Of a stretch of 64,000 bases of DNA, positions 1,770 through 50,260 are shown piece after piece. The position numbers were made by a program, and so were the translations under genes. How positions within the stretch are numbered: the first letter of the stretch is position 1; each line of letters starts with the position of its first letter. The DNA comes from a virus, in IMG/VR virus record IMGVR_UViG_3300044726_000013, positions 15,595 through 79,594 of that record. One strand, given 5' to 3'. Under the pieces are notes generated by a model that worked only from the letters and a program-made list of their open reading frames with translations, was not told the origin of the DNA and did not search any database.

Positions 1770-2183
1770 ATGGCTGTAACGCGTAAACGGATTGATGAGA
1801 ATGCCATCATCACCGTACTGGCTGAAGACAACCCCAAGCGTGAGGGCTCTGCCGCCCGCGCCCGGTTTGACCTGTACCGTGATGGCATGACCGTCAGGGA
1901 GGCCAAGGCCAATGGCCTGTGGGCCACTGACATTGCCTATGACAGCGACCCCGGCCGCAACTTCATCAGGCTGACAACGGCTGACGGTGAGGACGCCACC
2001 CCGGCACCCAAGGCCAAGAAGGCCAAGAGCGCCAAGAAGGTGGCCAAGAAGGTGGCCAAGAAGGTGGCCAAGAAGGTGGCCAAAAAGGCCGCCAAGAAGC
2101 GGGTCAAAAAGCAACCCGAGCCTGAGGTGGCAGTTGACCCTGAGGCTGAGGGAACTGAGACTGACGCCATGGCCGCTGAGTAA
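1770..2183 (+). CDS. NPK-domain protein with a histone-H1-like KKVA repeat tail (putative DNA-binding protein)
   Basis: NPKREGSAARARFDLYRDGMTV...DIAYD...FIRL, then AKKVAKKVAKKVAKK and an acidic end. AAGGAAG RBS before ATG 1770. Confidence 0.75.
   Translation: MAVTRKRIDENAIITVLAEDNPKREGSAARARFDLYRDGMTVREAKANGLWATDIAYDSDPGRNFIRLTTADGEDATPAPKAKKAKSAKKVAKKVAKKVAKKVAKKAAKKRVKKQPEPEVAVDPEAEGTETDAMAAE
2030..2099 (+). repeat. 12-bp coding tandem repeat (GCCAAGAAGGTG)n
   Basis: About four perfect copies plus degenerate ones, encoding AKKV. Confidence 0.9.
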
Positions 2184-2212
2184 AGCGGCGGCAACCGGGG
2201 GAGCCCTGAGGC

Positions 2213-3055
2213 ATGCGCGTTGAAGACATCTGGGTGTTCGCCCAAAAGCGGCACTACATCTACCTGAGACGCACAGCCGGGGCACCCCCGGAAACGTGGA
2301 CTGATGACCCCATTCTGAAGACCTACCGCTTCTGCAACATGTACCGTGAACTTGACACCGTGACCGATTGGTTGCGGGTCAACTGGCGTGAGCCGCACGC
2401 TGACCACCCTGACCTGTGGCACGCCTTTGTGGTGGCCCGGCACATCAACAACGTGCCCATGCTGACTGCGCTGGGCGGCATCACGCTGCCGTGGGACCCC
2501 GGCCATTTCATTGACGTGGGCATGGCCCGCAAGCAGGCTGGTGAGCGCGTCTGGTCTGCCGCCTACATCATTGGCACCCGCACGCCCGGTGACAAGTGCA
2601 TCTACATTGCCGATAACGTGCTGACGCCCATGTGGCGCAAGCGTGACAAGATCAGGCCGCAACAGGGTGACACGCTGACCAGTTGGCACATGCAGCTTGG
2701 CCTATGGTTCGGCATGGCCAGCTTCATGGCGGCGCAGGTGATTGCGGATATCAAGCACGCCACCCCGGCGCTGAAGAACGCTGGTGACTGGCACACCTTC
2801 TGCGCCAGCGGGCCGGGCAGCCGCCGTGGGCTCAACCGCATCTTTGAGCGTGACAAGAATGCGCCTTGGCGTGAAGATGACTTCAGGCTGAAGCTGCTGA
2901 GCCTGAGGCAGGAACTGGCACCCATGTTTGCCGCCAGCGGCTGGGCTATACCTGACGCGCAAGACGTGCAGAACATGCTGTGTGAGTTTGACAAGTACGA
3001 GCGCACCCGGCTGGGTGAGGGCAAACCCAAGCAACTGTTCAGAGGTGGATCATGA
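2213..3055 (+). CDS. aGPT-Pplase1 / '5-hmdU DNA kinase helical domain' family protein (thymine hypermodification)
   Basis: WTDDPILKTYRFCNMYRELD, FMAAQVIAD, GPGSRRGLNR and QNMLCEFDKY match the hallmark motifs of this family. Confidence 0.85.
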   Translation: MRVEDIWVFAQKRHYIYLRRTAGAPPETWTDDPILKTYRFCNMYRELDTVTDWLRVNWREPHADHPDLWHAFVVARHINNVPMLTALGGITLPWDPGHFIDVGMARKQAGERVWSAAYIIGTRTPGDKCIYIADNVLTPMWRKRDKIRPQQGDTLTSWHMQLGLWFGMASFMAAQVIADIKHATPALKNAGDWHTFCASGPGSRRGLNRIFERDKNAPWREDDFRLKLLSLRQELAPMFAASGWAIPDAQDVQNMLCEFDKYERTRLGEGKPKQLFRGGS

Positions 3056-3360
3056 CCCGCAGCAACACCACATGGCACGCACACAAGCTGTTCAAGCGTC
3101 GGTACAAGAAAAGGCCCAAGTGATTTTGCCCAAGTACGACTGGCACAGCGCAGATGATGATTATGAGCCGTTGCCCGTGCCGGGCATGGGTGCGTTCTGG
3201 TTTGGCGCGCTGGTGGGCGCGCTGATTGAGGCTGGGCTGATACTGGTATTCGCTTTCATCTTCTGGGTGCTGTGATGAATATGACGCCTGAGCGGTTGGG
3301 TGCCTATCTGGTGGCGGTGGTGGTGGTGCTGGCATTGCTGGTGTGGTTTGGAGTGATCTG

Positions 3361-3561
3361 ATGATGCCTGAGCGGTTGACGGATTGGTTTGACTGGCCCG
3401 GTGGCCCGGTGCCGCCCATGCCACCTGAGACGGCGGTGGTGGTGAAGTTCCGTGACGGGCTTGAGGGCCGGGCGCGCAAGGTCAAGAGCCTGCGGTGGGA
3501 TCACGTCAATAGCCCTGATGACGTGGTGGCCTACCGCTACTGGGTGAGGGTTGATGGCTGA
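3361..3561 (+). CDS. Small hypothetical protein
   Basis: WFDWPGGPVP...VKFRDG...LRWDH...DVVAYR, a motif pattern common in small phage proteins. Confidence 0.6.
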   Translation: MMPERLTDWFDWPGGPVPPMPPETAVVVKFRDGLEGRARKVKSLRWDHVNSPDDVVAYRYWVRVDG

Positions 3562-3784
3562 GGCTGAAGATGCTTCAGTGGAAGCGGCGCACACCAAGGC
3601 CACCCTTGAGGTGCTGAGGGCCGTCTGGACCATTGCCAAGCGGCATCAGGTCTGCGCCTCATGCCTGATGTTCAACGCCGCGTCACAGGTGAGGCTGGCG
3701 CTTGATGATGGTGACATAGACCACGGGCCGCCTGACATTGACGAAGAGTTTGAAATAGTGGGTGAATTTCGTACTGACCACTAA
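3554..3784 (+). CDS. Hypothetical protein
   Basis: Overlaps the upstream stop codon; CxxC motif and acidic tail. Confidence 0.55.
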   Translation: MAEAEDASVEAAHTKATLEVLRAVWTIAKRHQVCASCLMFNAASQVRLALDDGDIDHGPPDIDEEFEIVGEFRTDH

Positions 3785-3789
3785 ATATC

Positions 3790-3821
3790 GCTTTACAATC
3801 AGGCATGAAGGATGCTACTTA
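3790..3821 (+). promoter_or_regulatory. Putative promoter (GCTTTACA ... TGCTACTT)
   Basis: Repeated -35 box with a GCTA-type -10 element, intergenic. Confidence 0.65.
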
Positions 3822-3853
3822 GGGGACTCAACCAACCCCTCTGGAGCCAACCC

Positions 3854-4249
3854 ATGTTTGAACTTTTTAGCACTACCCTCTACCCCCACCTTGATGCCCG
3901 CACCGCCAACTGGGTCATCGCCTTTGATGAAGACGGGCGCTACTACGTAGACCACACGCCCGGCTCTGACTTCTGGGTGCCGGTGCCCTACGCCTACGCC
4001 ACCCGTGAGGGCGCTGAGGCTGGCATTGCCGCCATCAAGGCGTGGGAGGCCCCTGTGGCCGCTGGTGAAGACGTGCTGAGCCTTGAGGCCCTGCGCGCCA
4101 CGCCAGAGTGGGCGGCGCTGCTGACCCACGTGCACATGCGCCAAGCCATAGTGCCTGACCTGAGCGTGTTTGATTTCAACGTGGAAATCATGCCCGGTGC
4201 CTATGACCACTACCGCGCCATCACCCTTGCTGGCGCGCAAGTGCTGTAA
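3854..4249 (+). CDS. Hypothetical protein
   Basis: GGAG RBS before ATG 3854, directly downstream of a promoter box. Confidence 0.65.
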   Translation: MFELFSTTLYPHLDARTANWVIAFDEDGRYYVDHTPGSDFWVPVPYAYATREGAEAGIAAIKAWEAPVAAGEDVLSLEALRATPEWAALLTHVHMRQAIVPDLSVFDFNVEIMPGAYDHYRAITLAGAQVL

Positions 4250-4282
4250 CCATCAACCCTGAAACCAAGAAGGACCAAGACC

Positions 4283-4555
4283 ATGAATAACGACCGCCGC
4301 AAGAGCATCAGCAAGCTGCATGACGAACTTGACACGCTCAAGAGCGCGCTTGAGGATTTGCGTGACCAGATAGACACCCTGAAGGGTGAAGAGGAAGACG
4401 GCTTCAACAACCTGCCTGAGGGCCTGCAACAGGCTGAGCGTGGGCAGGCCATGGAAGAGGCCACCAACCAGCTTCAGACCGCCTATGACGCCGCTGACAG
4501 CGCCGTCAGCAGTCTGGATGAGGCCCTGACCGCCCTTGATGACGCGGGGGTCTGA
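4283..4555 (+). CDS. Conserved acidic coiled-coil phage protein
   Basis: MNNDRRK...EEEDGFNNLPEGLQQAERGQAMEEA; AGGA RBS. Confidence 0.75.
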   Translation: MNNDRRKSISKLHDELDTLKSALEDLRDQIDTLKGEEEDGFNNLPEGLQQAERGQAMEEATNQLQTAYDAADSAVSSLDEALTALDDAGV

Positions 4556-4556
4556 G

Positions 4557-4841
4557 ATGCGCAACGCCATGATCAACCCTGTGCCGAACCTGAACGGCAA
4601 CAGCAGTGAGAGCCTGCTGAAACAACTGGGTGGCGTGCTGACCGCCCTGCATGACCTTGAGAAGGCCATGCGGGGTGCCAGCGACTGCTACCACGGGCGC
4701 AACTTTCAGACCGTGAGGTTTAGCGTTGAGAGCCAACAGGCCGCCCAGCGGGCGTGGCATGAGCGCTTTGAGTGGCTGAGCCAGTTTGAGCGTGAGATTG
4801 AAGACATGAGGCTGGCAATCCAGCAGAAAGAAGGCATGTAA
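4557..4841 (+). CDS. Hypothetical protein
   Basis: Tightly packed ORF with TAATG coupling to the next gene. Confidence 0.65.
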   Translation: MRNAMINPVPNLNGNSSESLLKQLGGVLTALHDLEKAMRGASDCYHGRNFQTVRFSVESQQAAQRAWHERFEWLSQFEREIEDMRLAIQQKEGM

Positions 4842-5170
4842 TGTGGATTTGTTTCAACAACGCGTTTGTCAGCGTGGTACAAGACAGGGATAAGCCCGGC
4901 TACTTGCTGGTGCGCGCCCGGCGCAAGGCGCACCTGACCAAGCTGTTCCCCAAGGCCAAGATCACCGAGACACCCAAGCGTGACTACCGCTGGCGCGTCA
5001 GCGTGCCCCCCCTCTACATGGCCGATCTAGTGGCCAAGCACATCATAGGCATTGACTACGGCAACTTCAAAGACAGCGTGAAGGAAGACGCCCTGCATGA
5101 CATGTACAGCCTCTGGTGGGGTGACCATCACCGCTACCAGACCGACCGGCACCGGCAGAAGTGGGGGTGA
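4841..5170 (+). CDS. Conserved hypothetical phage protein
   Basis: MWICFNNAFVSVV...LLVRARR...DYRWR...IDYGNFK pattern. Confidence 0.75.
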   Translation: MWICFNNAFVSVVQDRDKPGYLLVRARRKAHLTKLFPKAKITETPKRDYRWRVSVPPLYMADLVAKHIIGIDYGNFKDSVKEDALHDMYSLWWGDHHRYQTDRHRQKWG

Positions 5171-5201
5171 GCGATTTTTCTTCAGCGGGGTCCATTTAGG
5201 T

Positions 5202-5233
5202 GCTTTACAGGGCCGTCGCATATGGGCTATACG
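5202..5233 (+). promoter_or_regulatory. Putative promoter (GCTTTACA-N18-TATACG)
   Basis: Repeated -35 box followed by GGCTATAC. Confidence 0.65.
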
Positions 5234-5280
5234 AGATGTACCGGGGCGCTGGTGCCCCGGCACATTTTGAGGTTTTCACC

Positions 5281-6894
5281 ATGACCACCACCAAAGTTTT
5301 TACCCCGTCACCTGAACAGGCCGTGTTTCTTGACTGGATTTCTAACGGCAAGGGCTCTTGCGTGCTTGAGGCGGTTGCCGGTGCGGGCAAGACCACCACG
5401 CTGCTTGAAGGCGTCAAGCGCATGCAGGGTGAGGTTTTTCTGGGTGCCTACAACACCAAGATGGCTGCTGAGTTGAAGCAGAAGCTGGCGGCCATGGGCC
5501 TGCCCAACAAGGGCGCTGACGGCAAGAACGCCGCCACGTTTCACTCTGCGGGCATGAGCGCCCTGCGCAGCGCCAACAAGGCCATTCAGGTCAATGACAA
5601 GAAGGTGCGTGATCTGGTTGACGGTCTGGTCAAGAGCCAGAGCGGCGTCTTTGCCGTGCGTGACGCGGCTGACGGTGAAATCACCGCCATCTGCCAGTTG
5701 GTCGGCCTTGCCAAGCAGACCGGCTTTGGCGTTGACAATCTGGTGCCCAACGTGAAGCCCGCCTACTGGGTTGAACTGATCAACCGCCATGACGTGGCTG
5801 ACCGTCTGCCCGATGATTACAACGTGGCTGATCTGGTGACCACCGCTGAGCGGGTGCTGGCGCTGAGCAACGCTGACCGTGACACCATTGATTTTGATGA
5901 CATGTGCTACCTGCCGCTGTTGCGCCGCCTGCGCTTTTGGCCCAAGGATTGGGTGCTGATTGATGAGGCGCAAGACACCAACGCCGTGCGCCGTGAGATT
6001 GCCCGCAAGATGCTGCGCCCGCATACCGGCCGCCTGATTGCCGTGGGTGATCCCCATCAGGCCATTTTTGGCTTCACGGGCGCTGATAACCAGAGCCTTG
6101 ATCTGATCCGCAAGCTGTTCAACGCCAGCACGCTGGCGCTGAGCGTTAGCTGGCGCTGCCCGTCTGCGGTGGTTGCGGTGGCGCGTGAGTACGTCAGCCA
6201 CATTCAGCCCGCGCCTACCGCGCCTGAGGGTGTGGTGCGCTCTGCCACCTACCGCCAGATGGTTGACACCATTCAGCCCGGTCAGGCGGTACTGTGCCGC
6301 ACCAATGCGCCGCTGATTGAATTGTGCTTCAGGTTGATCCGTGAAGGCAAGCCCGCCAAGATTGAGGGCCGGTCTATTGGTGACGGTCTGGTGGCGCTGG
6401 TTGGCCGCTGGAAGGTCAAGGGCCTTGATGCCTTTGAAGGCAAGCTGACCAAGTGGAACCTGCGTGAGACGGCCAAGCTGGCTGGCGCGCCCAAGGTTGA
6501 TGAGGCCAAGATTGCCCGCCATGAAGACAAGTACGCCACCATTCTGGTGCTGCTTGAGCGTGCCCGTGAGCGTGGTTTGCAGACGGTGGCTGAGATGCAG
6601 GCCATGGTGCAGGGCATGTTCTCTGACACGGCGCTTGAAGGCCAGACGGCCAATCTGGTGGTGCTGTCTAGCGTGCACAAGAGCAAGGGGTTGGAGTGGC
6701 CGGTGGTGCACATTCTGGGCCGTGGTGACATCATGCCCAGCCCGCGCGCCAAGCAAGATTGGCAGATCGAGCAGGAAATCAACCTCTGCTACGTGGCGGT
6801 GACTAGGGCGCAAGAGGTGCTGGTTGACGTGCCCATGCCTACCCCGGAAGACCTGAAGCCCACCCAGAAGCCGGTTGAGGGGGTGGCGGCATGA
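5281..6894 (+). CDS. Second UvrD-like SF1 helicase
   Basis: AVAGAGKTT, IDEAQD, VGDPHQAIFGFTGA, SWRCP, SSVHKSKGLEW, YVAVTRA. Confidence 0.92.
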   Translation: MTTTKVFTPSPEQAVFLDWISNGKGSCVLEAVAGAGKTTTLLEGVKRMQGEVFLGAYNTKMAAELKQKLAAMGLPNKGADGKNAATFHSAGMSALRSANKAIQVNDKKVRDLVDGLVKSQSGVFAVRDAADGEITAICQLVGLAKQTGFGVDNLVPNVKPAYWVELINRHDVADRLPDDYNVADLVTTAERVLALSNADRDTIDFDDMCYLPLLRRLRFWPKDWVLIDEAQDTNAVRREIARKMLRPHTGRLIAVGDPHQAIFGFTGADNQSLDLIRKLFNASTLALSVSWRCPSAVVAVAREYVSHIQPAPTAPEGVVRSATYRQMVDTIQPGQAVLCRTNAPLIELCFRLIREGKPAKIEGRSIGDGLVALVGRWKVKGLDAFEGKLTKWNLRETAKLAGAPKVDEAKIARHEDKYATILVLLERARERGLQTVAEMQAMVQGMFSDTALEGQTANLVVLSSVHKSKGLEWPVVHILGRGDIMPSPRAKQDWQIEQEINLCYVAVTRAQEVLVDVPMPTPEDLKPTQKPVEGVAA

Positions 6895-8495: not shown

Positions 8496-8718
8496 GCGGC
8501 GGCGCGCTGAGCGGGCGGCGCACAAGTTCAGTGATGACATAGGCGGGCACGCCAGCAACTACCGCCAGACCGTGCCGCCCATGGTGCACACCAACATCAA
8601 GGATCACAGTGATGTGCGTGACGCCACAACCGAAAAACCGCTGGCACCAAAACCTGACCGATGTTAGGTTCAGGGGTAGCAGGGCCTGTAGGGGTACGGG
8701 AGTAACAGGCTCTGCAAC

Positions 8719-8761
8719 GGCGGCCCGTGGCATTGGCTGGTCACGGGCCGCCTGTTTATTT
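8719..8761 (+). terminator. Intrinsic terminator-like hairpin just upstream of the inositol synthase RBS
   Basis: GGCGGCCCGTG / CACGGGCCGCC 11-bp stem followed by TGTTTATTT. Confidence 0.65.
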
Positions 8762-8779
8762 CAACACAGTGAGGGTTTC

Positions 8780-10902: not shown

Positions 10903-11083
10903 CCGGGTTGAGGGTGAGACGTTGCACACGTACCTTGGGGATGGCGTCTACGCCAGCTTTGACGGCTACCAGATATGGCTGCGGGCCGACCGCTTTGGCA
11001 TAGAGCAAGCCGTGGCCGTTGAGCCTGAGGTGATGGCCCAACTGGTGATCTACGCCGCCAAGGTCTTTGGGGAAAAGCCATGA
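10889..11083 (+). CDS. Small conserved phage protein
   Basis: YLGDGVYASFDGYQIWL motif; overlaps both neighbours. Confidence 0.7.
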   Translation: MAAGDRVEGETLHTYLGDGVYASFDGYQIWLRADRFGIEQAVAVEPEVMAQLVIYAAKVFGEKP

Positions 11084-11517
11084 TGAAAATCTACCGCGTG
11101 GCAACAGACCTGATGCTGTCTGCCCGCACCCACACCCTGACCGATGACCAGTGCGTTGATCTGGTCAACAGGCATGAACTCACCGCCATCATCAACCTGT
11201 GGCACACGCCGGATCAGCGCGTGGCCAAGATGGTTGACTGGTATGAGTGCGTGCCGCTGCCTGACGGCCAGATCAGTGAGCGCATGGCCCACTGCCTTGA
11301 AACCTTGGCAGATGACGTGGCCGCTGAGGTGCGCAGGGGCGGCAGGGTGCTGATGCATTGTTGGGGCGGGCGCAACCGCTCAGGTTTGCTGGCGGCCTTG
11401 GTGCTGACCCGGCTGGAGCGTATAACCGGCAGCCAAGCCTATGACCGCGTGCGGGCCGTGCGGCGCGGCGCGCTGGTCAACCTGCACTTTGCCAACTACC
11501 TGAAGAGGCGGCCATGA
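11080..11517 (+). CDS. Cys-based (PTP/dual-specificity family) phosphatase
   Basis: VLMHCWGGRNRSG (HCX5R loop), with an upstream PLPD acid loop. Confidence 0.9.
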   Translation: MMKIYRVATDLMLSARTHTLTDDQCVDLVNRHELTAIINLWHTPDQRVAKMVDWYECVPLPDGQISERMAHCLETLADDVAAEVRRGGRVLMHCWGGRNRSGLLAALVLTRLERITGSQAYDRVRAVRRGALVNLHFANYLKRRP

Positions 11518-11927
11518 GCATTCCTGAAAAGCTACGTCAGGCATATCATAACGATCTGACTGACGTGCCCTTGCTGCTTGAGGCGGCTGATGAAATTGAC
11601 AAGTGGGACCGGCGTTGGTGCGTGGCTGTTAAGACGATAGCTGAGCGTGATGAAACCATCGAGCGGCTGACGGCAGAGCGCAACAAGCTGGAAGACATGT
11701 GGCGTGAGCGCCCCACCGGCACCCGCAACCAGCGTGAGCGCCAGCTTACCAAGCGGTTGGAAGACGCTGAGGCATTAGCTTTCACGCTGGCAACGCAGGT
11801 CAGGGCGGCTGAGGCCGTACTGGTGACCATTGAGAGCCGGGCCAGCGGCTACACCCATGGGGATGAACGGGTTGAAGCCACGTTCAGGGGCATAGCGGAA
11901 CTTGCCCGTAAGAAGGCGGCGTCATGA
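11514..11927 (+). CDS. Hypothetical coiled-coil protein
   Basis: ATGA overlaps at both ends; LLEAADEI motif. Confidence 0.65.
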   Translation: MSIPEKLRQAYHNDLTDVPLLLEAADEIDKWDRRWCVAVKTIAERDETIERLTAERNKLEDMWRERPTGTRNQRERQLTKRLEDAEALAFTLATQVRAAEAVLVTIESRASGYTHGDERVEATFRGIAELARKKAAS

Positions 11928-12487
11928 GCATTGTTCTGATCAGGGGCACGGGCGGCAGCGGCAAGACCTACATTGCCGAGCAGGTGATCAAGGCGCTGGG
12001 CGGCCTGAGCGCGGCCACCACGTTCACCATGGGGCCCAAAGACAAGACGGCGGGCTACATCTGGCGGGCTCCCCCGGTTACCATCATGGGGCGCTACGGC
12101 AACGCCTGCGGCGGCTGTGACACCATTGGCGGCTGGCCGGGGGGTCCAGATGATATCTGCAAGCGCATTGCCGTTGAGGCGTCACTGGGCCAGAGCGTGC
12201 TGTGGGAGGGCATTGCCGTCAGCAGCTACGGCCAGAAGCGGTTGCTGCTGATGCCGGGCCTGACGGTCATTCAGCTTGACACTTCACTTGAGGAATGCGT
12301 TAAGTCAATCTATGCGCGGCGCGCGGCCAAGGGCAATGCAAAGCCGCTTGACCTGTACCACACCGAGCGTAAGCATAAGGCGCTGTTTACGACCACGCGC
12401 AGCAACGCGGCGGCGGGCATTGCCACTGAGACGCACAGCCGTGAAACTGCATTGCCGCGCGTCATGGAATTACTTGGTTTAGTTTAG
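11924..12487 (+). CDS. P-loop kinase, probable 5-hydroxymethyluracil DNA kinase
   Basis: IRGTGGSGKT, GRYGNACGGCDTI, LWEG, LDTSLEECVKSIYARR, plus genomic context. Confidence 0.8.
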   Translation: MSIVLIRGTGGSGKTYIAEQVIKALGGLSAATTFTMGPKDKTAGYIWRAPPVTIMGRYGNACGGCDTIGGWPGGPDDICKRIAVEASLGQSVLWEGIAVSSYGQKRLLLMPGLTVIQLDTSLEECVKSIYARRAAKGNAKPLDLYHTERKHKALFTTTRSNAAAGIATETHSRETALPRVMELLGLV

Positions 12488-12628
12488 GGGAGATCATTTT
12501 GAGGGCGAACGGCCAGCCCAACAACGGTAAGTCACCTCCCTATCTCCCCGGCCCAGTGCGGCTTGCTTAGAGGGTCAAGGTGATGCGGCTAGGAAAGTGC
12601 ATACCTTTTTGGTTCAGAGCGTTGAGAG

Positions 12629-12668
12629 TGGCGGCGGGGCAGGCGAACCCCCCGCCGCCATTTTATTT
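12629..12668 (+). terminator. Intrinsic terminator-like hairpin just upstream of the dUMP hydroxymethylase RBS
   Basis: TGGCGGCGGGG / CCCCGCCGCCA stem followed by TTTTATTT. Confidence 0.7.
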
Positions 12669-12682: not shown

Positions 12683-13738
12683 ATGTTTACTATTCACGTC
12701 AGCAACGTCAACTACGCATGGCTTGACGCCATCAAGCTTATTCAGCAGTACGGCGTGCCAGAAGACAGCCGCGCGGGGCGCGTCAGCGTGATGCCCGGCC
12801 CGGTGACCACCATCTATAACCAGCCGCGCCAGAGGGTGCTGTTTGATGCTGTGCGTGACGCCAACCCGGTGTTTCACCTGCATGAGGCGCTGTGGATGCT
12901 GGCGGGGCGCAATGACGCTACGGGGCTAGATATATTCGTCTCAGATTTCAGCGCCCGGTTTGCTGAAGAGGATGGCCGCCAGCACGGGGCCTATGGCTAC
13001 CGCTGGCGCAACCACTTCACCAACGTGCGTGACTTTGCGGGCGTTGACATGGATCAGCTTGACGTGGTGGTTGACATGCTGGCGCGTGACCCCGGCACAC
13101 GGCAGGCGGTCATTGCAATGTGGGACGCTGAGGTTGACCTTGACCAGCCGCGCCTGAAGGATAAGCCCTGCAACACCCACATCTACCTGCGCCTGCGCAT
13201 CACGCCACGCACCGCTGGGGCTAGTGCCAGTGGGCTGATGGTGCAGGCTGACCTGCGTGAACTTGACATGGCCGTGATGTGCCGCAGCAATGACATCGTG
13301 TGGGGTTGCTACGGTGCCAACGCCGTGCACTTCAGCATCTTGCAGGAGTATCTGGCAGCGCGGATGGGCGTAGAGATGGGGCGGCTGACGCAGTTCAGCT
13401 TCAACTGGCACATGTACTCTGCCACCAAGCATCTGGCTGACATCGTGGGGGCTGAGGCGGGCATCATGGGCGGCTACCCCGGCACCGTGCCGCTGGTGAC
13501 AGACCCCCGCAGCTTTGACCGTGAGGTGCGCGCCTATGTGCAAGACCCCAGCCTTGCCACGCTGGGTGAATTTGATAACGAGTTTCTGACCCGCACGGCA
13601 TGGCCCATGTACATGGCCAACATTGAGCGCAAGGCGGGCAACACGGCCACGTCTGCCCTGACGTGGGCAGAAAGCATTCAGGCACCAGATTGGCGCAAGG
13701 CCACCATGGCGTGGCTAGAAAGGAAGATAAAGAAATGA
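12683..13738 (+). CDS. Thymidylate synthase homologue, probable dUMP hydroxymethylase
   Basis: RDANPVFHLHEALWMLAGRND, HGAYGYRWR, TRQAVIAMWD, DKPCN, CRSNDIVWGCYGANAVHF, NWHMY. The Asn in GANAV indicates dUMP rather than dCMP as substrate. Confidence 0.88.
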   Translation: MFTIHVSNVNYAWLDAIKLIQQYGVPEDSRAGRVSVMPGPVTTIYNQPRQRVLFDAVRDANPVFHLHEALWMLAGRNDATGLDIFVSDFSARFAEEDGRQHGAYGYRWRNHFTNVRDFAGVDMDQLDVVVDMLARDPGTRQAVIAMWDAEVDLDQPRLKDKPCNTHIYLRLRITPRTAGASASGLMVQADLRELDMAVMCRSNDIVWGCYGANAVHFSILQEYLAARMGVEMGRLTQFSFNWHMYSATKHLADIVGAEAGIMGGYPGTVPLVTDPRSFDREVRAYVQDPSLATLGEFDNEFLTRTAWPMYMANIERKAGNTATSALTWAESIQAPDWRKATMAWLERKIKK

Positions 13739-18906: not shown

Positions 18907-18938
18907 AAAAGAAGAGGGCCCCCGCAGGGGCCCCTTTT
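18907..18938. terminator. Bidirectional intrinsic terminator between convergent genes
   Basis: A-rich flank, GGGCCCC-CGCA-GGGGCCC stem-loop, then TTTT. Confidence 0.7.
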
Positions 18939-19618
18939 CACTTGATGCTGATGTGGCCGTGGCGGGTGTCCCACCTGAAGTCTTCACGGGTCAGGCCCGC
19001 CAAGATGGCATCACCCACGGTCATGCCGTCAACGTAGCGGGCGTAGCGCTTGAAGGCCAAGCTGCCCTTGCGCTTGGGGTTGGCCACGATCAGCGTGATC
19101 ACCTGCCCGTCAGCGTACTCAGGGCGCGGGCCACGGTGGGCGCTGGCCTTGACGGTGACCTTGACCGCCTTGGCCTTGACCGGCTTGGCGGCTGGCGCGG
19201 CCTTGGCGGCCTTCTCAGGCTTGGCGTTGGCCATGGCCTTCTTGAACTGGGCCACCAGACCGGCACCGCCCTTGGCCACGCCCTTGGCGGCCTTCTTGGT
19301 GGTCACGGCCTTGAACTTGACCACGTTGCCGCTCAGGCTGTCAGCCAGCCCCTCAAGGCCGTTGCCCGTGCCCGCTACCGGCGCTTCAACGCCATGGGCG
19401 GCAAGGCCAGCCATGTCAGCGTTGAGCCCGGCAAGGCCGTTGCGCACCAGCTTGGTGCCGTCAAGCACCAGAGAATGGTCAGCCATGATCTTGGTCAGGC
19501 GGGCAACGCCCGTGGGCTTGTCATGGAAGCCCTTGATTTCTTTCAGCGGCAGCTTGAGTTCAGACACCGCGCGGTTGTAGGCCACGTTAAGCTGGGCCAG
19601 AGAAAGTTCGGTAAGCAT
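18938..19618 (-). CDS. Lys/Ala-rich protein with a C-terminal NPK domain
   Basis: ANPKRKGSLAFKRYARYVDGMTVGDAILAGLTREDFRWDTRHGHISIK. Has its own GCTTTACA promoter at 19702-19709. Confidence 0.8.
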   Translation of the reverse strand: MLTELSLAQLNVAYNRAVSELKLPLKEIKGFHDKPTGVARLTKIMADHSLVLDGTKLVRNGLAGLNADMAGLAAHGVEAPVAGTGNGLEGLADSLSGNVVKFKAVTTKKAAKGVAKGGAGLVAQFKKAMANAKPEKAAKAAPAAKPVKAKAVKVTVKASAHRGPRPEYADGQVITLIVANPKRKGSLAFKRYARYVDGMTVGDAILAGLTREDFRWDTRHGHISIK

Positions 19619-27820: not shown

Positions 27821-28318
27821 CTATGCGGGCCGCCATGTCAGGTGCTGACGTGCGCCGTCCCACCGCAAGTCTTCACGGGTAATGCCACGGGCCAGCAACT
27901 CGGCCTCGGTAAGGCCGTCTTGGTAGAGCGCGTAGCGGCCATACGCCTTGCTGCCCTTCTGCTTGGGGTTGGGCACATGGCTGACCAGCACGCGGGCGGC
28001 CTTGGCGGCCCGTGCAACGGGGCTGCGTGGGCTGGGCTGGGCTGGCTTGGGCGGCTGCGGCTTGGGGTAGGGCTTGGGCTTCAGTTGGGCGCTGTCAGGG
28101 CACTTGGTCAGAACACCCTTCAGGCAGGCGGTGGCGATCATGGCGCGCAGATCAGTGCTGCGCTCAAGGCGTGACAGGGCGGCCTGTGGCGGCAGCTTGT
28201 GCTGAATGAGGATCACATCAAGCGGCACGCCGGGCGTGGGCAGGGGCAGTTGCAGGGCCTTGCAGACGGCCAGTTGGTCAGCCGGGCACAGGCGCGTAAA
28301 TGCGGCAGCGTCAATCAT
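27821..28318 (-). CDS. Protein with a C-terminal NPK domain
   Basis: PNPKQKGSKAYGRYALYQDGLTEAELLARGITREDLRWDGARQHL. Confidence 0.78.
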   Translation of the reverse strand: MIDAAAFTRLCPADQLAVCKALQLPLPTPGVPLDVILIQHKLPPQAALSRLERSTDLRAMIATACLKGVLTKCPDSAQLKPKPYPKPQPPKPAQPSPRSPVARAAKAARVLVSHVPNPKQKGSKAYGRYALYQDGLTEAELLARGITREDLRWDGARQHLTWRPA

Positions 28319-28411: not shown

Positions 28412-29338
28412 TCACGCCAGCCGCAGCTTGGTGGCGCTGGTGCCCACGGCGGTGCCAAGGTGCACCTTGTTGCCCGCAGCCATGCCCGCCTCACGCGCGC
28501 TCTGGCTGCCGCTGGTGGCCACGCGGGTGTTGCTGGCCTTGCGCAGCTTGCGGTCACCCCATTGCTCGGCAACCACGGCGTTCTTGACCACCATCAGGGC
28601 GGTGCCGCTGGTGGTGACCAGCGTCTCCGTATGCCTTGCCTTCAGCATTTCCCTGATACGGGTGCTGACGCGCGCGGTGTAGGCCAGCATGAAATCATTG
28701 CGGGTGCGGCGGTTGTTGACCCAGTTGGTGGCCTTGAAGGCGGCATAGCCACGGTCACCGGCACCCTCAATGACGCGCATCAGGTAGGTGGCCACCTCAA
28801 CGTCAGCCGGGAGGCCGAAGAAGATGATCTGCCCGGTGCCGGTCTTGTGGTAGACAATGCAGGCGCAGTAATCGGCAATGGCCTTGGCGCACCACTGGCT
28901 GGGGTGCGGCCGGGCGCGGTGCGCGCCGTGAATGCCGCTTTCACACTTTTCGGCTTTGATCTCAGTCTCAGATTGTTCAATGCCGTACTTGTCCATAAGC
29001 TGCCCGGCCTTTTCAGCGGCGGCCATGGCCTCTTCCTCGGTGCAGCCGTTTTCAACGGTCTTGCTCAGCAGGGCGCGTATGCGGTTGACGGCGGCGCTGC
29101 GGTTGGCGGTGGGCGCGGCAGCGGTGGCGGCGCTGAAGGTGCTTTCACCGGCCGGTATGGCAATGAAGCCGCGCTTCTCATCCCAGTGCAGGTCTTCACG
29201 CGTGCCACCGGCCCGCAGGTACTCACCGGGCGTCATGCCGTCACGGTAGAGGCTGAAGCGGTAGTGCGCCTTGCTGCCGGGCTTCTTGGGGTTGGGTACC
29301 AGCACGCGGATGCGCGCAACGGGTGATTTGAAAGACAT
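28412..29338 (-). CDS. N-terminal NPK domain fused to a DUF2786-like domain
   Basis: PNPKKPGSKAHYRFSLYRDGMTPGEYLRAGGTREDLHWDEKRGFI, then RIRALLSKT...TEEEAMAAAEKAGQLMDKYGI. Promoter box at 29413-29420. Confidence 0.82.
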   Translation of the reverse strand: MSFKSPVARIRVLVPNPKKPGSKAHYRFSLYRDGMTPGEYLRAGGTREDLHWDEKRGFIAIPAGESTFSAATAAAPTANRSAAVNRIRALLSKTVENGCTEEEAMAAAEKAGQLMDKYGIEQSETEIKAEKCESGIHGAHRARPHPSQWCAKAIADYCACIVYHKTGTGQIIFFGLPADVEVATYLMRVIEGAGDRGYAAFKATNWVNNRRTRNDFMLAYTARVSTRIREMLKARHTETLVTTSGTALMVVKNAVVAEQWGDRKLRKASNTRVATSGSQSAREAGMAAGNKVHLGTAVGTSATKLRLA

Positions 29339-44529: not shown

Positions 44530-47124
44530 ATGGCCAAGCGTCTGGGCAAGAAGCTGCATATGAGCCGTGGGGCAACCCACGCCCGCATGCAGTTTCAGGA
44601 AGCCAAGCACAAGCGTGATGTCAGCGGCAAGTTTGCTGACATGCCGGGCAGCGTTGTGCCGGGCCTTGACGGCAACGTTGCTGACATAGCGCCCGCAATG
44701 CAGCCAGCCACCAAGGCTGACTGGATGGCAGGTGCCAAGACCAGCAAGGTGACGGGTGATGACCTGATCAAGCTGCACGTCACCAGCAACCCCAAGAAGG
44801 CGGGCAGCGCGGCGGCTGAGCGCTTTGCCAAATACACCGACGGCATGAGCGTGGCTGACTACCGCAAGGCCGGGGGCACCGCTGAAGACTTGGCTTGGGA
44901 CCGCAAGCGCGGCTTTGTCAGCTTTCACACGCCAGACACCTACCACAGCATCAGCACCAACGGGGCCTCCCCGGTCAGTCAGATCAACCACCAGACCGCC
45001 ACTGGGCGGCTGGCCAACATCAAGGCGCAGGCTGAGGCCAAGGCAGGCGTGACCACTGAGGCGGTGAAGCCACCCCCACCTGACGTGCCCATGAAGGCGT
45101 CTGGTGAGCCGCCTGAGCCACCGCCGCCGCCCAAGCCGGTAGAAGCGGCCCCTAAACCCGCCGCTGCGGCCCCAGCCAGCCCCGCCAGCGCGTCTGCGGC
45201 CCCCAAGGCACCTGAGACACCCGCCGCGCCCAAACCCGCGCCCACGGGCACGCCTGAGGCCGCTGTGGTGGCCAAGCCGCCTGAGGTGGGCGTGGTTGAG
45301 CCTGCGGCAGCCCCCAAGATTGAGCCAAGCACCAAGGTTGGCTTCTACAAGAAGGGGGTGACGCCGGATGAGACAACCACGCTGAACGGCGTTGAGTTGA
45401 AGCCGTGGACCCCGCCCAAAGACAATGCGGGCTGGGCCAAGGTTGACGGGCAGAACCCAGATATCGGTGAGACACCGCTGAATGCCAAGGGCAAGCGGCC
45501 GGGCGCTGGCGTGCTGATCACTGAGCCTGACGGCAGGGTTTGGCTGGTCAAGCCCACCAAGGGTTATGGCGGCTATGAGTACACATTCCCCAAGGGTGGC
45601 CAAGACCCCGGTGAGGGCCTGTCACTGCAAGCCACCGCCATCAAGGAAGCGTATGAAGAAAGCGGCCTGAAGGTGCGCATCACTGGCGTGGCCGGTGACT
45701 TTGAGGGTGACACCAGCGTGGCGCGCTACTACCACGCGGTGCGTGAGGACGGTAGGCCCGCAGATCATGGCTGGGAGAGTGAAGCCGTTGTGCTGGTGCC
45801 CAAGGACCAGCTTGACCTGTACTTGAACAAGAGCCGTGACAAGAGCATTGCCACACAGCACCTGAAGCCTGAGCCCAAGCCCGCTGGCGCGCCGCCTGCC
45901 GCGCCTGCGCCCAAGCCTGCTGAAGGCCCAACCGTGGCACCCAGCGGTCTACCGCCGCAGATGCCCAATGACCACCGCTTCAAGATTGAAGACGTGGTGG
46001 ACATGCCCGCCCACAAGATGGTTGATGAGGGTGACGCGGGTCTGGAGTGGGAGTACAAGAAAGAATATCACCAGTACGGTGGCGATAACTGGGTCAAGAG
46101 CGTGGGCGGCACCCGCATCACAGACCAAGCTGACTTCAACAAGAAGTATAAGGATGCCCCGCTCACTTATCTGACCAATGATCAATACGATAACCTTGGC
46201 TACACCAGCGTCAACACCAAGAAGTTGCCCACGTTCAACGAGATTGCGCCGGGCCTGATACAGCGCAACCGTGACCCCAAGGCTATCAGGGACCGCATGT
46301 TCAACGGTGTGACCACGCCGCCTATTGTGCTGAAGCACGGCAACACCTACCGCCTGATGGCAGGCCAGAGCCGCATTTGGACCGGCCTGTCTGCGGGCAT
46401 CAGGGTGCCGGTCAAGGTCATAGACGTGACGCCCGGTGCAGCCAAGCCAGTGGTGGGCAAGGGCAAGTTCACTGAGGCTGACATTGTGGGTGACAAGGTA
46501 GTCACTTCAATGTTCAGGGAAAAATTCACCACCCGCATGAACAAGCTGCCTGAGAAGTTTGTCAGTGCGGCCATAAAGGATGGTAAGCCTCACCTCTACG
46601 GCAGCTACAAAGGTGCCACAGACGCACCGCACATGAAGATGAGCGGCACGTCAAAGGCCCCGGTGGCTTATTATGCCATCAAGGAAAAGCACACAGCCTT
46701 CTTTGAAGACATGAACAGCAAGTCGGGCAAGGCTCTGAAGGGCAATGGCTACACTGACGCGGAGGTAGAGGAATATCACTTGGGCAACATTGCCCATGAA
46801 CTGGGCCATCAAATGGATTATATCAACCGCACCAAGGTGCCGGGTAAATTTCAGATGACGGGTGGGTCAAAAGACCCTGAGTTCATGACCAAGGCTGAGA
46901 AGATACGGAAGAGATATGTCACAACGCCCAACCAGACCGATCAAGAGAAGTGGGCCACCTATTTCACGTCTGATCAAGAGATGTGGGCGGCGGGCACCGA
47001 GGTGGTGATGATGGGCGGGCGCAGGGGCGTCAGCAGCAAGAACAGCTTGCTGGGCAAATTGATGCATGAAGAGGGCTTGGTTGATTGGATGACTGCCCAT
47101 TACAAGAGTAGGGGTGCGCTGTGA
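44530..47124 (+). CDS. Multidomain putative virion effector: HKRDxxGKF motif, NPK domain, Nudix hydrolase, ParB-like segment and zincin HExxH domain
   Basis: KHKRDVSGKF; NPKKAGSAAAERFAKYTDGMSV; FPKGGQDPGE...KEAYEESGL; PPIVLKHGNTYRLMAGQSR; IAHELGHQMD...QEMWA. Confidence 0.8.
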   Translation: MAKRLGKKLHMSRGATHARMQFQEAKHKRDVSGKFADMPGSVVPGLDGNVADIAPAMQPATKADWMAGAKTSKVTGDDLIKLHVTSNPKKAGSAAAERFAKYTDGMSVADYRKAGGTAEDLAWDRKRGFVSFHTPDTYHSISTNGASPVSQINHQTATGRLANIKAQAEAKAGVTTEAVKPPPPDVPMKASGEPPEPPPPPKPVEAAPKPAAAAPASPASASAAPKAPETPAAPKPAPTGTPEAAVVAKPPEVGVVEPAAAPKIEPSTKVGFYKKGVTPDETTTLNGVELKPWTPPKDNAGWAKVDGQNPDIGETPLNAKGKRPGAGVLITEPDGRVWLVKPTKGYGGYEYTFPKGGQDPGEGLSLQATAIKEAYEESGLKVRITGVAGDFEGDTSVARYYHAVREDGRPADHGWESEAVVLVPKDQLDLYLNKSRDKSIATQHLKPEPKPAGAPPAAPAPKPAEGPTVAPSGLPPQMPNDHRFKIEDVVDMPAHKMVDEGDAGLEWEYKKEYHQYGGDNWVKSVGGTRITDQADFNKKYKDAPLTYLTNDQYDNLGYTSVNTKKLPTFNEIAPGLIQRNRDPKAIRDRMFNGVTTPPIVLKHGNTYRLMAGQSRIWTGLSAGIRVPVKVIDVTPGAAKPVVGKGKFTEADIVGDKVVTSMFREKFTTRMNKLPEKFVSAAIKDGKPHLYGSYKGATDAPHMKMSGTSKAPVAYYAIKEKHTAFFEDMNSKSGKALKGNGYTDAEVEEYHLGNIAHELGHQMDYINRTKVPGKFQMTGGSKDPEFMTKAEKIRKRYVTTPNQTDQEKWATYFTSDQEMWAAGTEVVMMGGRRGVSSKNSLLGKLMHEEGLVDWMTAHYKSRGAL

Positions 47125-47351
47125 CAACGTTTGTGCATGTGATCAGCCTGACTGCAACGCTGTACCCGGTGCTGACCCAGAATGAAAACATTCTGGGCGA
47201 CGGTGAGATGACGCGTGATGAATTGGAGGCCATGCTGCCTGAGGGTGAGCGGCTGAGTGAGGGGCATTACGAAATCAGTGATGACGGCGTGGCCCGGTGG
47301 GTGGGCTTTGATCTGCCGCCACCCGCTGATGAGGCGGATGAGGCGTTCTGA
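47121..47351 (+). CDS. Small acidic protein
   Basis: GTGA/TGATG overlaps with both large neighbours. Confidence 0.6.
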   Translation: MTTFVHVISLTATLYPVLTQNENILGDGEMTRDELEAMLPEGERLSEGHYEISDDGVARWVGFDLPPPADEADEAF

Positions 47352-50260
47352 TGCCCGCTGGTCTGAAGCTGAAGACAGCTAAGATATCCAAGGGTGCCCA
47401 CGGCATCAAGATCAAGTGGGACATGAACAAGCACAAGCGTGACAGCTTGACTGGTCGGTTCACGTTCAAGCCCGGCACTGAAGAGTTCAAGTCTGAGCCG
47501 TTCGGCCCCGGCAAGACCGGCAACATCAAGGGCACAGATGTCATCAAGCTGCACGTCACCAGCAACCCAAAGAAGCCGGGTAGCAAGGCCAATACTGACT
47601 TTGAGAATTACAAGGATGACATGACGGTTGCTGAGTTCAGGGCGGCAGTCGGCAGCAACGTCAAGGCCAATGAGCATCTGACCTATGACACCAAGAAGGG
47701 CTTCATCACCATTCATGACCCGGCCACGCTGCCCGCCAAGCCGCTGGCCCAGCCTGAGCCGCCGCCCCCGCCCAAGCTGACCATGGCCGAGTATGCCATC
47801 ACCAGCAAGACCAAGAACCTGCAACCGCACGACAAGATCAAATTGCTGGCGGGTGAGAACCCCAAGAAGGCGGGCAGCAAGTCTGCGGCCCTATTCTCAA
47901 ACTATAAGGATGAGATGACCGTTGGTGAGTTCCACGCGGCCATTGGCAACAAGAAGGCCAGTCAGGAAACGTTGCTCTACGACCTCAAGAAAGGCTTCAT
48001 CAGCGTGCACAACGGCGCTGATCTGGCTGACATGCAGAGCGGCAAGCTGAGCCCCGGCAAGCTGGCGGCGCACATGCAGACGGGTGACAAGGGCCTTGGC
48101 GTGGTCAGCAAGAACCCGTTCACCCCCGGCACCAAGAATTATCAGGACTTTGAAGACGCCGCCTTTGACCAAGGGCTGACCACGCAGGCCAAGGTGACAG
48201 CCAGCGTTGACCCGGCCACGGGTGCGCCCAAGCCCAAGTCACTGGCTGATCTGACAGATGATGACGTGGTGGTGAGCCAGTACGGCACTGAATACACCGC
48301 GTCGATGATGAAGGCCAACACTGACCCACTCTTCAAGAAACAGGTGGATGACAGTCTGGCGTCTGGCAAATGGACCGTCAAGCCCAAGCCGCCTGCCCTT
48401 ATGGATACTGACAAGGTATCTGTGAAGGGCGGCACCATGATCAGCAGCACCAAGTACACCGTGGCCGAGTACAAGGCCATCACCGGCATGACTGACAGTC
48501 AGGTGCAAAGCGCCCTGAGCGCTGGCAAGCTGCACCTGCACCCGCCGGAAGCCCCGGTCACCACCATGAAGCAAGGGCCGTCTGTGACCGCGCCCACGCC
48601 CGCGCCCGCGCCCACGCCCGCGCCCACGCCCACGCCTGCGCCCAAGGTGCTGCCCAAGCAGAGCGTTGAAGATGACACCGTGGTTCAGACCATGGGCGGC
48701 ACGGTCTACACGGCGGCTGAGTACAAGGCTAAATGGAAGAGCAACGGTCTGTCAGATGAAGAGGTAATCCATAAACTCAACAACAATATCGCCAGCGGCA
48801 CGCTGGTGGTCAAGGCCAAGAGCAAGTTTGCTGACAATGACGTGGTTGAGACGTACTTTGGGAATAAATACACCATAGCCCAACTGAAGGCCAAGTATCC
48901 ACATCACACTGATAATGATATTCAGGAGCAGCTTGACAACGGTGACCTGATATTTGTGGCTAAGCAGCCCCCACCGCCACCCCCAGCGGCCAAGACACCC
49001 ACGCTTGATGCCTTGGATGATGATGATGTCATCGTCAATTCAATGGGCGTGGTCATGATGTCAGCGGGCGGGGCCAAGAAACTGGAGACAGCATCAAAGA
49101 CTGCCGTTGAAGATGCGCTTGCCAGTGGTAACTGGAAGAAAGAAGGGCCCGCCAAGGTGCCCGGCATTGAGAAGCTGTCACAGATCACCAAGTCTGAGTG
49201 GGACAACTATGACGTTGCCACCATTACGGCGGCCAACCCCTACCCGGCAAACTCTGAGGCGTGGATCAAGTTCAAGAAGATACACAACACCTCAAGCGGT
49301 CTGCAAAGCATGAGTGTGACGAAATACATGTCATCCACCACCAATGTGGGCACGCAAGAGGCGGTGCTTGATAAGATGGTGGCTGACGGTCACGTCAAAT
49401 TCGTCACGCCCGCGCAGAAGAAAGCCGTGCAGGCGCAGAAGGCCCTGCTTCAGCAACAGGCCGCTGCTGAGGCCACCAAGAAGGCGGCTGCCACCGCCGC
49501 CGCGCAGAAGACCAAGTGGAATGCGCATTTCCAAGTGGTGAAAGAAAAGTCCATAACCCAGTTCACTGATGACCCCAAGTGGGGCACCGTGCCGGGCAAC
49601 ATGCTGCCCAGCCAAGTCAAGCAGAGCGGTATGGTGGCCGTCAAGGATATCATGGGCCTGAAGTACCACAGCAATGGCAAATATCCGGGTGTGGGCTGGT
49701 ACACTGACGGTGGCTACAGCGCCGCCAATGAAACGATGCGCAACCCCAAGCTGGGCCATGCCCATTTGAACAGTGAGCAGAAGGGCCACGTCAAGGAACT
49801 TGACAGCTTGATGTCTGAAACCAAAGAAGACGTGGTGATGTGGCGCGGTATTAGCGAAAGCAGTGACACGGTGCCTACTGCTGAGGCGCAGGGCAACATG
49901 AACAACATGCCACCGCCGTTTGAGTTTGTTGACGGCGGCTATGCCAGCATGAGTTTCAACCCACGGGTGTCTGACAACTTCAAGGGTTATTCCACCACGC
50001 ACGGTGACGGCGGCAGTACCTATTCAATGACGGGCAAGCGCCGCACGCTGTTCAAGATGCGCATACCCAAGGGCAGCAAGGCAGCCTTTGTGGGGCGCAA
50101 GCACTCAGCAGGGTTAGCCATGGAAGATGAGGCTGAGGTGATCACCGCACGCGGCACGCGTTTCAAGTACATCAGCACCACGCGTGATGTGGATTTCTAT
50201 GGTGCCAAGTATGACATCATTGAATTGGAAATTGTGAACCATGCTGGCGGCAATATCTGA
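47351..50260 (+). CDS. Multidomain putative virion effector: HKRDxxxGRF motif, NPK repeats and a C-terminal VIP2/Alt-like ADP-ribosyltransferase
   Basis: YTDGGYSAANETMR, MWRG, GYASMSF, and EDEAEVITARGTRF (R-S-ExE). Confidence 0.85.
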   Translation: MPAGLKLKTAKISKGAHGIKIKWDMNKHKRDSLTGRFTFKPGTEEFKSEPFGPGKTGNIKGTDVIKLHVTSNPKKPGSKANTDFENYKDDMTVAEFRAAVGSNVKANEHLTYDTKKGFITIHDPATLPAKPLAQPEPPPPPKLTMAEYAITSKTKNLQPHDKIKLLAGENPKKAGSKSAALFSNYKDEMTVGEFHAAIGNKKASQETLLYDLKKGFISVHNGADLADMQSGKLSPGKLAAHMQTGDKGLGVVSKNPFTPGTKNYQDFEDAAFDQGLTTQAKVTASVDPATGAPKPKSLADLTDDDVVVSQYGTEYTASMMKANTDPLFKKQVDDSLASGKWTVKPKPPALMDTDKVSVKGGTMISSTKYTVAEYKAITGMTDSQVQSALSAGKLHLHPPEAPVTTMKQGPSVTAPTPAPAPTPAPTPTPAPKVLPKQSVEDDTVVQTMGGTVYTAAEYKAKWKSNGLSDEEVIHKLNNNIASGTLVVKAKSKFADNDVVETYFGNKYTIAQLKAKYPHHTDNDIQEQLDNGDLIFVAKQPPPPPPAAKTPTLDALDDDDVIVNSMGVVMMSAGGAKKLETASKTAVEDALASGNWKKEGPAKVPGIEKLSQITKSEWDNYDVATITAANPYPANSEAWIKFKKIHNTSSGLQSMSVTKYMSSTTNVGTQEAVLDKMVADGHVKFVTPAQKKAVQAQKALLQQQAAAEATKKAAATAAAQKTKWNAHFQVVKEKSITQFTDDPKWGTVPGNMLPSQVKQSGMVAVKDIMGLKYHSNGKYPGVGWYTDGGYSAANETMRNPKLGHAHLNSEQKGHVKELDSLMSETKEDVVMWRGISESSDTVPTAEAQGNMNNMPPPFEFVDGGYASMSFNPRVSDNFKGYSTTHGDGGSTYSMTGKRRTLFKMRIPKGSKAAFVGRKHSAGLAMEDEAEVITARGTRFKYISTTRDVDFYGAKYDIIELEIVNHAGGNI

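Follow-up and report, generated by a model that had tools for sequence, protein, structure and literature searches.

Copies of the NPK domain in the viral genome

The virus record IMGVR_UViG_3300044726_000013 of IMG/VR is a single viral record of 79,594 bp. The record has about 61% G+C. Its bases 15595-79594, a stretch of 64,000 nucleotides that was analyzed here and is called the window, encode six proteins sharing a small domain, referred to below as the NPK domain. The domain comprises about 55-60 residues, and in the translations of the six open reading frames (ORFs) its signature reads NPK-x2-GS ... Y-x-DGMTV ... WD ... GFI. An original prediction, made from the letters of the window, had proposed that such a domain was reused in six otherwise unrelated genes and might target proteins to modified DNA. 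The current work shows that the domain belongs to a large, mostly viral family with a strong link to the genes of thymidine hypermodification, and the domain is rated as a new accessory domain of thymidine-hypermodifying phages.

Six-frame scans with hidden Markov models (HMMs) over all 79,594 bp of the genome found seven copies of the domain in six ORFs (Table 1). The first profile was made from the genome's own seven copies and recovers exactly these, with independent E-values (i-E) of 2e-30 to 4e-26. Because re-finding the copies with such a profile is circular, a second profile was made from 200 domain segments of database relatives, with the window's own proteins left out; it recovers the identical seven copies (i-E 1.5e-20 to 6e-28). 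Both genome-wide profiles thus give seven significant copies, and the sharing of one domain by six genes is established. In the 15.6 kb outside the window, neither scan detected an additional copy.

The consensus proposed originally agrees with the column frequencies across the 200 relatives: N, P and Y never vary, nor does the D of WD (100%), and K reaches 98%, F/Y 98%, S/T 96%, G 95%, and M and T 92%. In the ADP-ribosyltransferase (ART) protein, the two full copies claimed earlier were recovered. The degenerate copies claimed at about 48100 and at 49230-49400 were not supported; they score 5.1 and 1.6 bits with the second profile (i-E 1.8 and 23) and may be relics.

In a tree of 82 domain sequences, each window copy pairs with its own orthologues from related contigs, and the copies are therefore old paralogues with no recent duplications. 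The Nudix copy and both ART copies cluster together (17 rows, support 93/100). With 66 columns, the alignment is too short to tell whether the copies that adjoin PF18723 genes belong to one clade.

Table 1. NPK domain copies, the proteins that carry them and genes of the modification cassette (window coordinates; profile 2 is the profile made from database relatives)
Feature	Position	Strand	Evidence and remarks
Small NPK protein	1770..2183	+	Domain, then basic KKVA-repeat tail, acidic end; translation and HMM
NPK copy 1	1794-1985	+	Profile 2 i-E 7e-25
PF18723 protein	2213..3055	+	Pfam E 5.4e-36, positions 4-278 of 281 in profile
Myo-inositol-1-phosphate-synthase-like gene	8609-9862		PF01658 E 5e-35
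348-aa ORF without family	9856-10902		
Dual-specificity/CX5R phosphatase	11080-11517		
P-loop kinase	11924..12487	+	tblastn with PaMx11 gp49: 31.7% identity, 189 aa, E 4.9e-21
Divergent thymidylate-synthase-family protein	12683..13738	+	Pfam PF00303 E 4.5e-18
NPK protein	18938..19618	-	N-terminal helical motif, Ala/Lys-rich linker, C-terminal NPK; translation and HMM
NPK copy 2	18941-19117	-	Profile 2 i-E 3e-25
NPK protein	27821..28318	-	Pro/Lys-rich linker, C-terminal NPK; translation and HMM
NPK copy 3	27824-28006	-	Profile 2 i-E 1.5e-20
NPK-DUF2786-DUF7168 fusion	28412..29338	-	N-terminal NPK; Pfam E 3.8e-13, 2.6e-18; phrog_421
NPK copy 4	29144-29329	-	Profile 2 i-E 2e-27
Nudix protein, 864 aa	44530..47124	+	NUDIX E 1.3e-12; in head-gene block
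NPK copy 5	44752-44937	+	Profile 2 i-E 6e-28
ADP-ribosyltransferase protein, 969 aa	47351..50260	+	ADPrib_exo_Tox E 7e-9; C-terminal ART
NPK copy 6	47528-47725	+	Profile 2 i-E 2.7e-26
NPK copy 7	47822-48019	+	Profile 2 i-E 4.8e-23

A large and unnamed viral domain family

When 1.84 billion cluster representatives were searched with a profile, 4,531 relatives of the domain were found at E<=1e-3, 1,476 of them at E<=1e-10; every source is metagenomic and every name is 'hypothetical protein'. The closest ESM-Atlas clusters are 78-90% viral. Pfam places nothing over the domain in the six window proteins, even at E<=1, PHROGs and NCBIfam have no match over it in the same proteins, and the Pfam matches among 149 relatives fall on partner domains only, none on the domain itself. 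The earlier statement that it could not be assigned to a named family therefore stands against all three collections. In the literature searched, and in the text-searched parts of PMC8989533 and PMC11472151, the domain is not described. The NPK element is a real, large, previously unnamed and mostly viral domain family.

Among 50,697 GenBank phage records, tblastn with three different copies or relatives as queries gave a single match, gp18 of PhiJL001, a marine alphaproteobacterial phage, and the same protein is the only significant match in a viral structure library.

Of 187 relatives, 117 carry the domain at the C-terminus, 48 internally and 22 at the N-terminus; 23 contain two or more copies. 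The 40 residues that precede it have a median K/R/A/P content of 47.5%. The carriers are for the most part small and are not joined to an enzyme. An ADP-ribosyltransferase is the Pfam partner in 11 of the 149 relatives scanned; other partners include Nudix, DUF2786/DUF7168, pyrimidine-dimer DNA glycosylase, Rho_N, HTH_23 and PHD fingers. Five relatives from ENA/JGI metagenome assemblies (P0022, P0048, P0194, P0200 and P0202) contain two NPK domains together with PHD fingers and coiled stretches rich in Glu/Lys. One relative has an AAA ATPase domain in addition. From their domain composition, these PHD-finger proteins look eukaryotic.

Proteins carrying the domain in the window

The first carrier is the small NPK protein. 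Its longest frame opens at a TTG at 1701, but translation more likely begins with the ATG at 1770; the basic KKVA tail described for it earlier is visible in the translation. The protein at 18938-19618 begins with the motif LSLAQL..YN...KGF.DK...R. A motif of about 45 aa of this kind (L..L...YN...KKF.DK...R) was also found in at least 35 other NPK proteins, and, judged by eye, PhiJL001 gp18 displays it as well. The motif, a linker and the domain make up a common two-module protein type. In our own reading, the motif resembles the two-helix Rho_N/SAP type; the Pfam Rho_N family was reached by just one of the 149 relatives scanned.

Pfam matches to DUF2786 and DUF7168, NUDIX and ADPrib_exo_Tox bear out the predicted fusions. 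The 864-aa Nudix protein consists of a basic leader, the NPK domain, a Pro/Ala linker, the NUDIX domain and a C-terminal region with HELGH, a zincin-type HExxH motif at 46800-46850 over which Pfam has no peptidase family. In the 969-aa ART protein, two tandem NPK domains are followed by five repeats of about 48 aa and the C-terminal ART domain. The repeats (48245-49150, residues ~300-600) have the pattern D-D-x-V-V..G..YT.AEYKA....SG.L.V with Pro-rich linkers between them, and no family matched them. They were considered as relatives of the NPK domain and rejected (hhalign probability 1.8%). Both genes sit between the portal/fibre genes and the scaffold/major head genes. At the N-termini of the Nudix (44530-44640) and ART (47351-47470) proteins, a basic leader with KHKRD-x2-3-G(K/R)F stands ahead of the NPK domain; a capsid-targeting or processing signal is a possible role for this leader.

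A thymidine hypermodification cassette

The gene that begins 30 nt past the first NPK ORF encodes a PF18723 protein (E 5e-36), in agreement with the claim that one copy lies directly upstream of a hypermodification gene. This family is named HMUDK_hel in Pfam, its relatives in GenBank are annotated aGPT-Pplase clade 1, and the window protein is the counterpart of Yua gp14 and PaMx11 gp50. PF18723 is a marker gene for thymidine hypermodification cassettes. The known cassette enzymes are a 5-hydroxymethyluracil DNA kinase (5-HMUDK), aGPT-Pplase 1 and 2 and a dUMP hydroxymethylase (PMC5889632, PMC8989533).

Further downstream, the P-loop kinase at 11924-12487 is a homologue of PaMx11 gp49, an experimentally shown 5-hydroxymethyldeoxyuridine DNA kinase (PMC8989533, Table 1). 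The protein at 12683-13738 scores well under the NCBIfam ThyA cut-offs and is 37-38% identical, over the full length, to Yua gp17, PaMx11 gp51 and PhiJL001 gp24; from this similarity it is likely a dUMP hydroxymethylase. A gene like those of HD nucleotidases also lies alongside the cassette. By tblastn, PaMx11 gp46 (aGPT-Pplase2) has no match in the genome. Taken together, the PF18723 gene, the kinase homologue, the hydroxymethylase-like gene and their neighbors indicate that the phage carries a thymidine hypermodification cassette.

The cluster at 8609-13738 has the order inositol-phosphate-synthase-like gene, 348-aa ORF, phosphatase, kinase homologue and hydroxymethylase-like gene. This gene content may point to an undescribed, possibly inositol-derived, hypermodification of thymine. 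Sequence searches found no solved relatives of the PF18723 protein or of the 348-aa ORF product.

Association of the domain with the cassette

The association was assessed on the 80 best domain-encoding IMG/VR loci, with 26 records of at least 34 kb searched; the counts come from records that a similarity search brought up, and genes may be missed in fragments. PF18723 was found in 15 of the 26 domain-bearing viral records; among the 10 with a completeness of 90% or more, 9 have it. For comparison, the window PF18723 protein matches 95 of the 50,697 GenBank phage records by tblastn, including M6, Yua, PaMx11 and PhiW-14. In each of the 15, a domain gene is found upstream of PF18723 and on its strand; the two are 33-816 nt apart in 11 of these records. 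The window has the same order, and in PhiJL001 gp18 (NPK) is followed by gp19 (PF18723), the two genes overlapping. The window, PhiJL001 and many metagenomic phages thus have an NPK gene leading the cassette.

Nine of the 11 PF18723-negative records form a separate group, in which one small domain gene lies about 2 kb upstream of a divergent thymidylate-synthase-like gene. The terminases of the four members searched (G007, G015, G019 and G025) are about 42% identical to that of the window. In a complete member of the group the genes run in the order SNF2 helicase, NPK protein (87 aa), unknown protein of 296 aa, P-loop kinase-like protein and thymidylate-synthase-like protein. At positions 3065-5919 of locus L257 (G025:C1:25000-34000), the NPK gene heads such a cassette; there the 296-aa product belongs to no family, the P-loop kinase-like protein has 338 aa and the thymidylate-synthase-like protein 261 aa. 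From its gene content, this type of cassette may represent a different pyrimidine modification pathway.

A thymidylate-synthase-like gene was present in 14 of the 16 domain-bearing records tested, and the other two are fragments, 43-54% complete. Seventeen long control records were chosen with large terminases 43-55% identical to the window's, a distance equal to that of several domain-positive records; none of the 17 has the domain or a thymidylate-synthase-family gene (Fisher p = 1.5e-7, with no correction for kinship). By these counts the domain is enriched in genomes with hydroxymethylase or HMUDK genes, as the original prediction had anticipated. In four complete records that have both the domain and PF18723, no terminase similarity to the window could be detected, and the link therefore spans more than one head lineage. 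M6, ViI, PhiW-14 and SP10 gave no tblastn match to two NPK queries, and no profile search of them was made. The genomic link between domain and cassette is strong and position-specific, and the NPK family occurs almost only in phages with hydroxymethyluracil-derived replacements of thymine.

Such a link could also arise if the domain were functionally unrelated to modification, a generic nucleoid-associated or linker fold co-inherited with the cassette by mosaic transfer. Phage modules travel in blocks, the records were fetched by query similarity and are thus related in this gene neighborhood, and the majority of PF18723 phages have no domain. This explanation is nevertheless improbable. The signature columns are 92-100% conserved among relatives that are otherwise 35-60% identical, a degree of conservation that points to a specific ligand site. 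Even in records with unrelated terminases, the domain gene keeps its position and strand with respect to the cassette, and the domain and the thymidylate-synthase-like gene are missing together from every one of the controls with similar terminases.

Predicted fold of the domain

An AlphaFold2 model was made for residues 1-71 of the DUF2786 fusion from a 58-sequence alignment, with a mean predicted local distance difference test (pLDDT) score of 84.6 and a core above 90. Its topology is a strand (residues 10-12), the NPK..GS loop, three helices (23-28, 37-43 and 47-56) and a strand (59-60). In the model, the NPK(K/R)xGS loop caps helix 1, and the DGMTV turn, helices 2 and 3 and the closing GFI strand follow. 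The three-helix core contains a helix 2-turn-helix 3 arrangement as in winged helix-turn-helix proteins. One short strand follows helix 3, the other strand of the model being the N-terminal one, which, provided the model is correct, suggests a variant wing.

In an exhaustive structural alignment, nearly all neighbors are of winged-helix type and all at low Z. They include recognition elements of ribosomally synthesized and post-translationally modified peptides (RiPPs) at Z of about 4, the regulators MarR, Fur and MecI and the Z-alpha domain at about 3.5 (3.2-3.8 for the regulators), a cullin/APC2 WH-B domain and a C-terminal winged-helix (WH) domain of MCM. Sequence searches of solved structures with the domain gave matches at chance level only. 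Since the fold matches have low Z, the model weakly supports the membership of this small winged-helix-like module in the winged-helix superfamily. A winged-helix-like fold would fit a module that targets nucleic acid and is no proof of one.

Compared with the known winged helix-turn-helix domains (the PriA WH domain, MarR/Fur, Z-alpha and the DpnI-type domain that senses 6mA), the modeled NPK domain has a similar compact three-helix core with helix-turn-helix and flanking strands. It differs from them in having no sequence similarity, in its best Z of 5.4, in its acidic helix 3 and in a second wing strand that, in the model, comes from the N-terminus and not from a hairpin after helix 3. The NPK(K/R)xGS loop is not known from any named winged-helix family. 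Some winged-helix domains do sense modified bases (PMC11037411).

The invariant NPK(K/R)xGS loop at the N-terminus of helix 1 resembles a phosphate-binding helix cap, and two partner domains, the ADP-ribosyltransferase and Nudix, use NAD or ADP-ribose. These features would suit a domain that binds a small phosphorylated ligand (a nucleotide, NAD, ADP-ribose or a phosphomethyl-uracil intermediate) as a sensor or for substrate channeling. We consider this very improbable, since the model of this three-helix, 55-residue domain shows no obvious pocket, the carriers are mostly small and lack an enzyme part, and the searches found no similarity to known nucleotide-binding folds.

Proposed role: tethering of proteins to phage DNA

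The NPK domain is proposed to be an accessory module of thymidine-hypermodifying phages that putatively binds DNA and tethers its fusion partners to it. On the gene neighborhoods and the model, we regard this proposal as about evenly balanced. DNA is inferred to be the partner because it is the one component that replication, modification and the filled capsid share, and because the basic flanking linkers and the partner domains suit nucleic-acid work. The domain would probably tether proteins to this unusual DNA, given that the family is almost restricted to phages of the hydroxymethyluracil type. The original prediction is partly supported: the enrichment with the cassette and the fixed place at the cassette head agree with it, and the winged-helix-like fold would fit it. 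DNA binding, the discrimination of hydroxymethyluracil or hypermodified thymine and a part in co-packaging or protection are putative.

According to this proposal, the domain would bind the phage's own DNA, with the conserved Lys/Arg and the Gly-Ser helix cap touching the backbone and the flanking Lys/Ala/Pro-rich linkers assisting. It would bring several partners onto that DNA: the small architectural proteins, the DUF2786/DUF7168 early protein and the two enzymes of the head block. One copy belongs to the small basic protein at the cassette head, and the others have been grafted onto further proteins. The Nudix/HExxH protein and the ADP-ribosyltransferase might in this way be packaged and injected together with the genome. 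The tethering could thus serve the co-packaging of the two large enzymes, the architectural coating of DNA and the aid of modification enzymes that bind DNA weakly. For PaMx11 gp46, a dissociation constant of ~278 uM for DNA is reported (PMC11472151).

A number of observations weigh against this role. Foldseek of the model against the PDB returned nothing at E<=0.001, and the best structural neighbor, the PriA WH domain, is a weak match (Z 5.4, rmsd, i.e. root-mean-square deviation, 5.9, 71 aligned). Winged-helix folds serve in the binding of proteins and peptides too. In helix 3, where recognition usually takes place, the conserved residues are Asp/Glu and Trp and not basic or polar ones, and the net charge of the domain is modest (median +2, range -6 to +9 in 187 relatives). 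Among 46 long PF18723 records the domain is present in only 17, strongly in 12, and it is absent from Yua and PaMx11; it is therefore an optional accessory of the cassette and no core part. The statistics of the association take no account of kinship or of co-transfer of the cassette. The KHKRD..G(K/R)F motif common to both virion enzymes could be the true packaging signal. Finally, the kinase and aGPT-Pplase2 are reported to suffice for amino-acid transfer in vitro (PMC8989533).

A more specific version of the proposal is that the domain serves specifically to read hypermodified thymine derived from hydroxymethyluracil, as a module for 'self-DNA'. This is possible and regarded as doubtful. 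Such a reader would load the ART and Nudix proteins for co-injection, coat the DNA against modification-dependent nucleases and guide the modification enzymes, and the same module would have been recruited into eukaryote-like chromatin proteins beside PHD fingers. The acidic helix 3 is odd for a classical recognition helix; we speculate that it could suit modified bases bearing amines.

The main rival is that the domain docks onto protein. Its partner would be a protein of modification or replication (aGPT-Pplase clade 1, the kinase or the polymerase) or of the capsid or portal, and proteins would be gathered at a 'modification factory' or at the head. The RiPP recognition elements, cullin/APC2 WH-B and MCM C-terminal domains among the structural neighbors agree with docking, as do the conservation and acidity of helix 3, the low net charge and the strict adjacency of the domain gene to PF18723 across many lineages. 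One clade, however, has the domain and no PF18723, and PF18723 is therefore no universal docking partner. Moreover, early, replication and head proteins are all among the partners, and DNA is the simplest thing that these have in common; the Lys/Ala/Pro-rich tails together with the DNA glycosylase and PHD-finger partners indicate nucleic acid or chromatin. A docking module is thus considered rather unlikely.

Comparison with known systems

TF1 of phage SPO1 is an HU-family protein of a hydroxymethyluracil phage and prefers hydroxymethyluracil DNA. Like the small NPK protein, TF1 is small, basic and encoded by a phage in which thymine is replaced, and it offers a precedent for the binding of a phage's own modified DNA. 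The two differ in that TF1 is one dedicated protein with the HU fold, whereas the NPK domain has another predicted fold and is portable among many partners. The modeled topology, a strand, three helices and a strand, is not that of HU, and no HU-type chain is present among the listed structural neighbors. In trypanosomes, the J-DNA-binding domain of JBP1 reads base J, a hypermodified hydroxymethyluracil, and targets an enzyme to modified DNA. The JBP1 domain is eukaryotic, larger and all-helical, and it is not among the structural neighbors of the NPK domain.

The capsid-targeting sequence of T4 Alt and the domains of MuF/SPP1 gp7 type are N-terminal modules that bring ADP-ribosyltransferases or other enzymes into the capsid. 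The NPK domain resembles them in lying near the N-termini of the ART and Nudix proteins in the head-gene block. Unlike them, it is also present on early and replication proteins, which have no need of capsid targeting, and there is no homology between them.

Hypermodification pathways are known enzyme by enzyme, and the NPK domain adds to them an unnamed family with thousands of members and a carrier in a cultured phage, PhiJL001 gp18. In the literature searched and the text-searched parts of PMC8989533 and PMC11472151, no protein that recognizes modified DNA is linked to the cassettes. Should modified DNA prove to be its ligand, the domain would represent a new class of reader for base modifications and could provide an affinity reagent for bases of the hydroxymethyluracil type. 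Such binding would account for the entry of effector enzymes into the capsid or for the shielding of DNA, and would tie the phage proteins to the eukaryote-like PHD-finger proteins with the same domain. Even without DNA binding, the domain is a useful marker for hypermodifying phages in metagenomes.

Other features of the window

Two separate helicase genes of UvrD/Rep type lie at 100-1686 and 5200-6894, in the same early or replication block. At 39192-43844, a fibre-like protein of 1,550 aa contains many internal repeats and is matched piecewise by several PHROG tail-fibre families.

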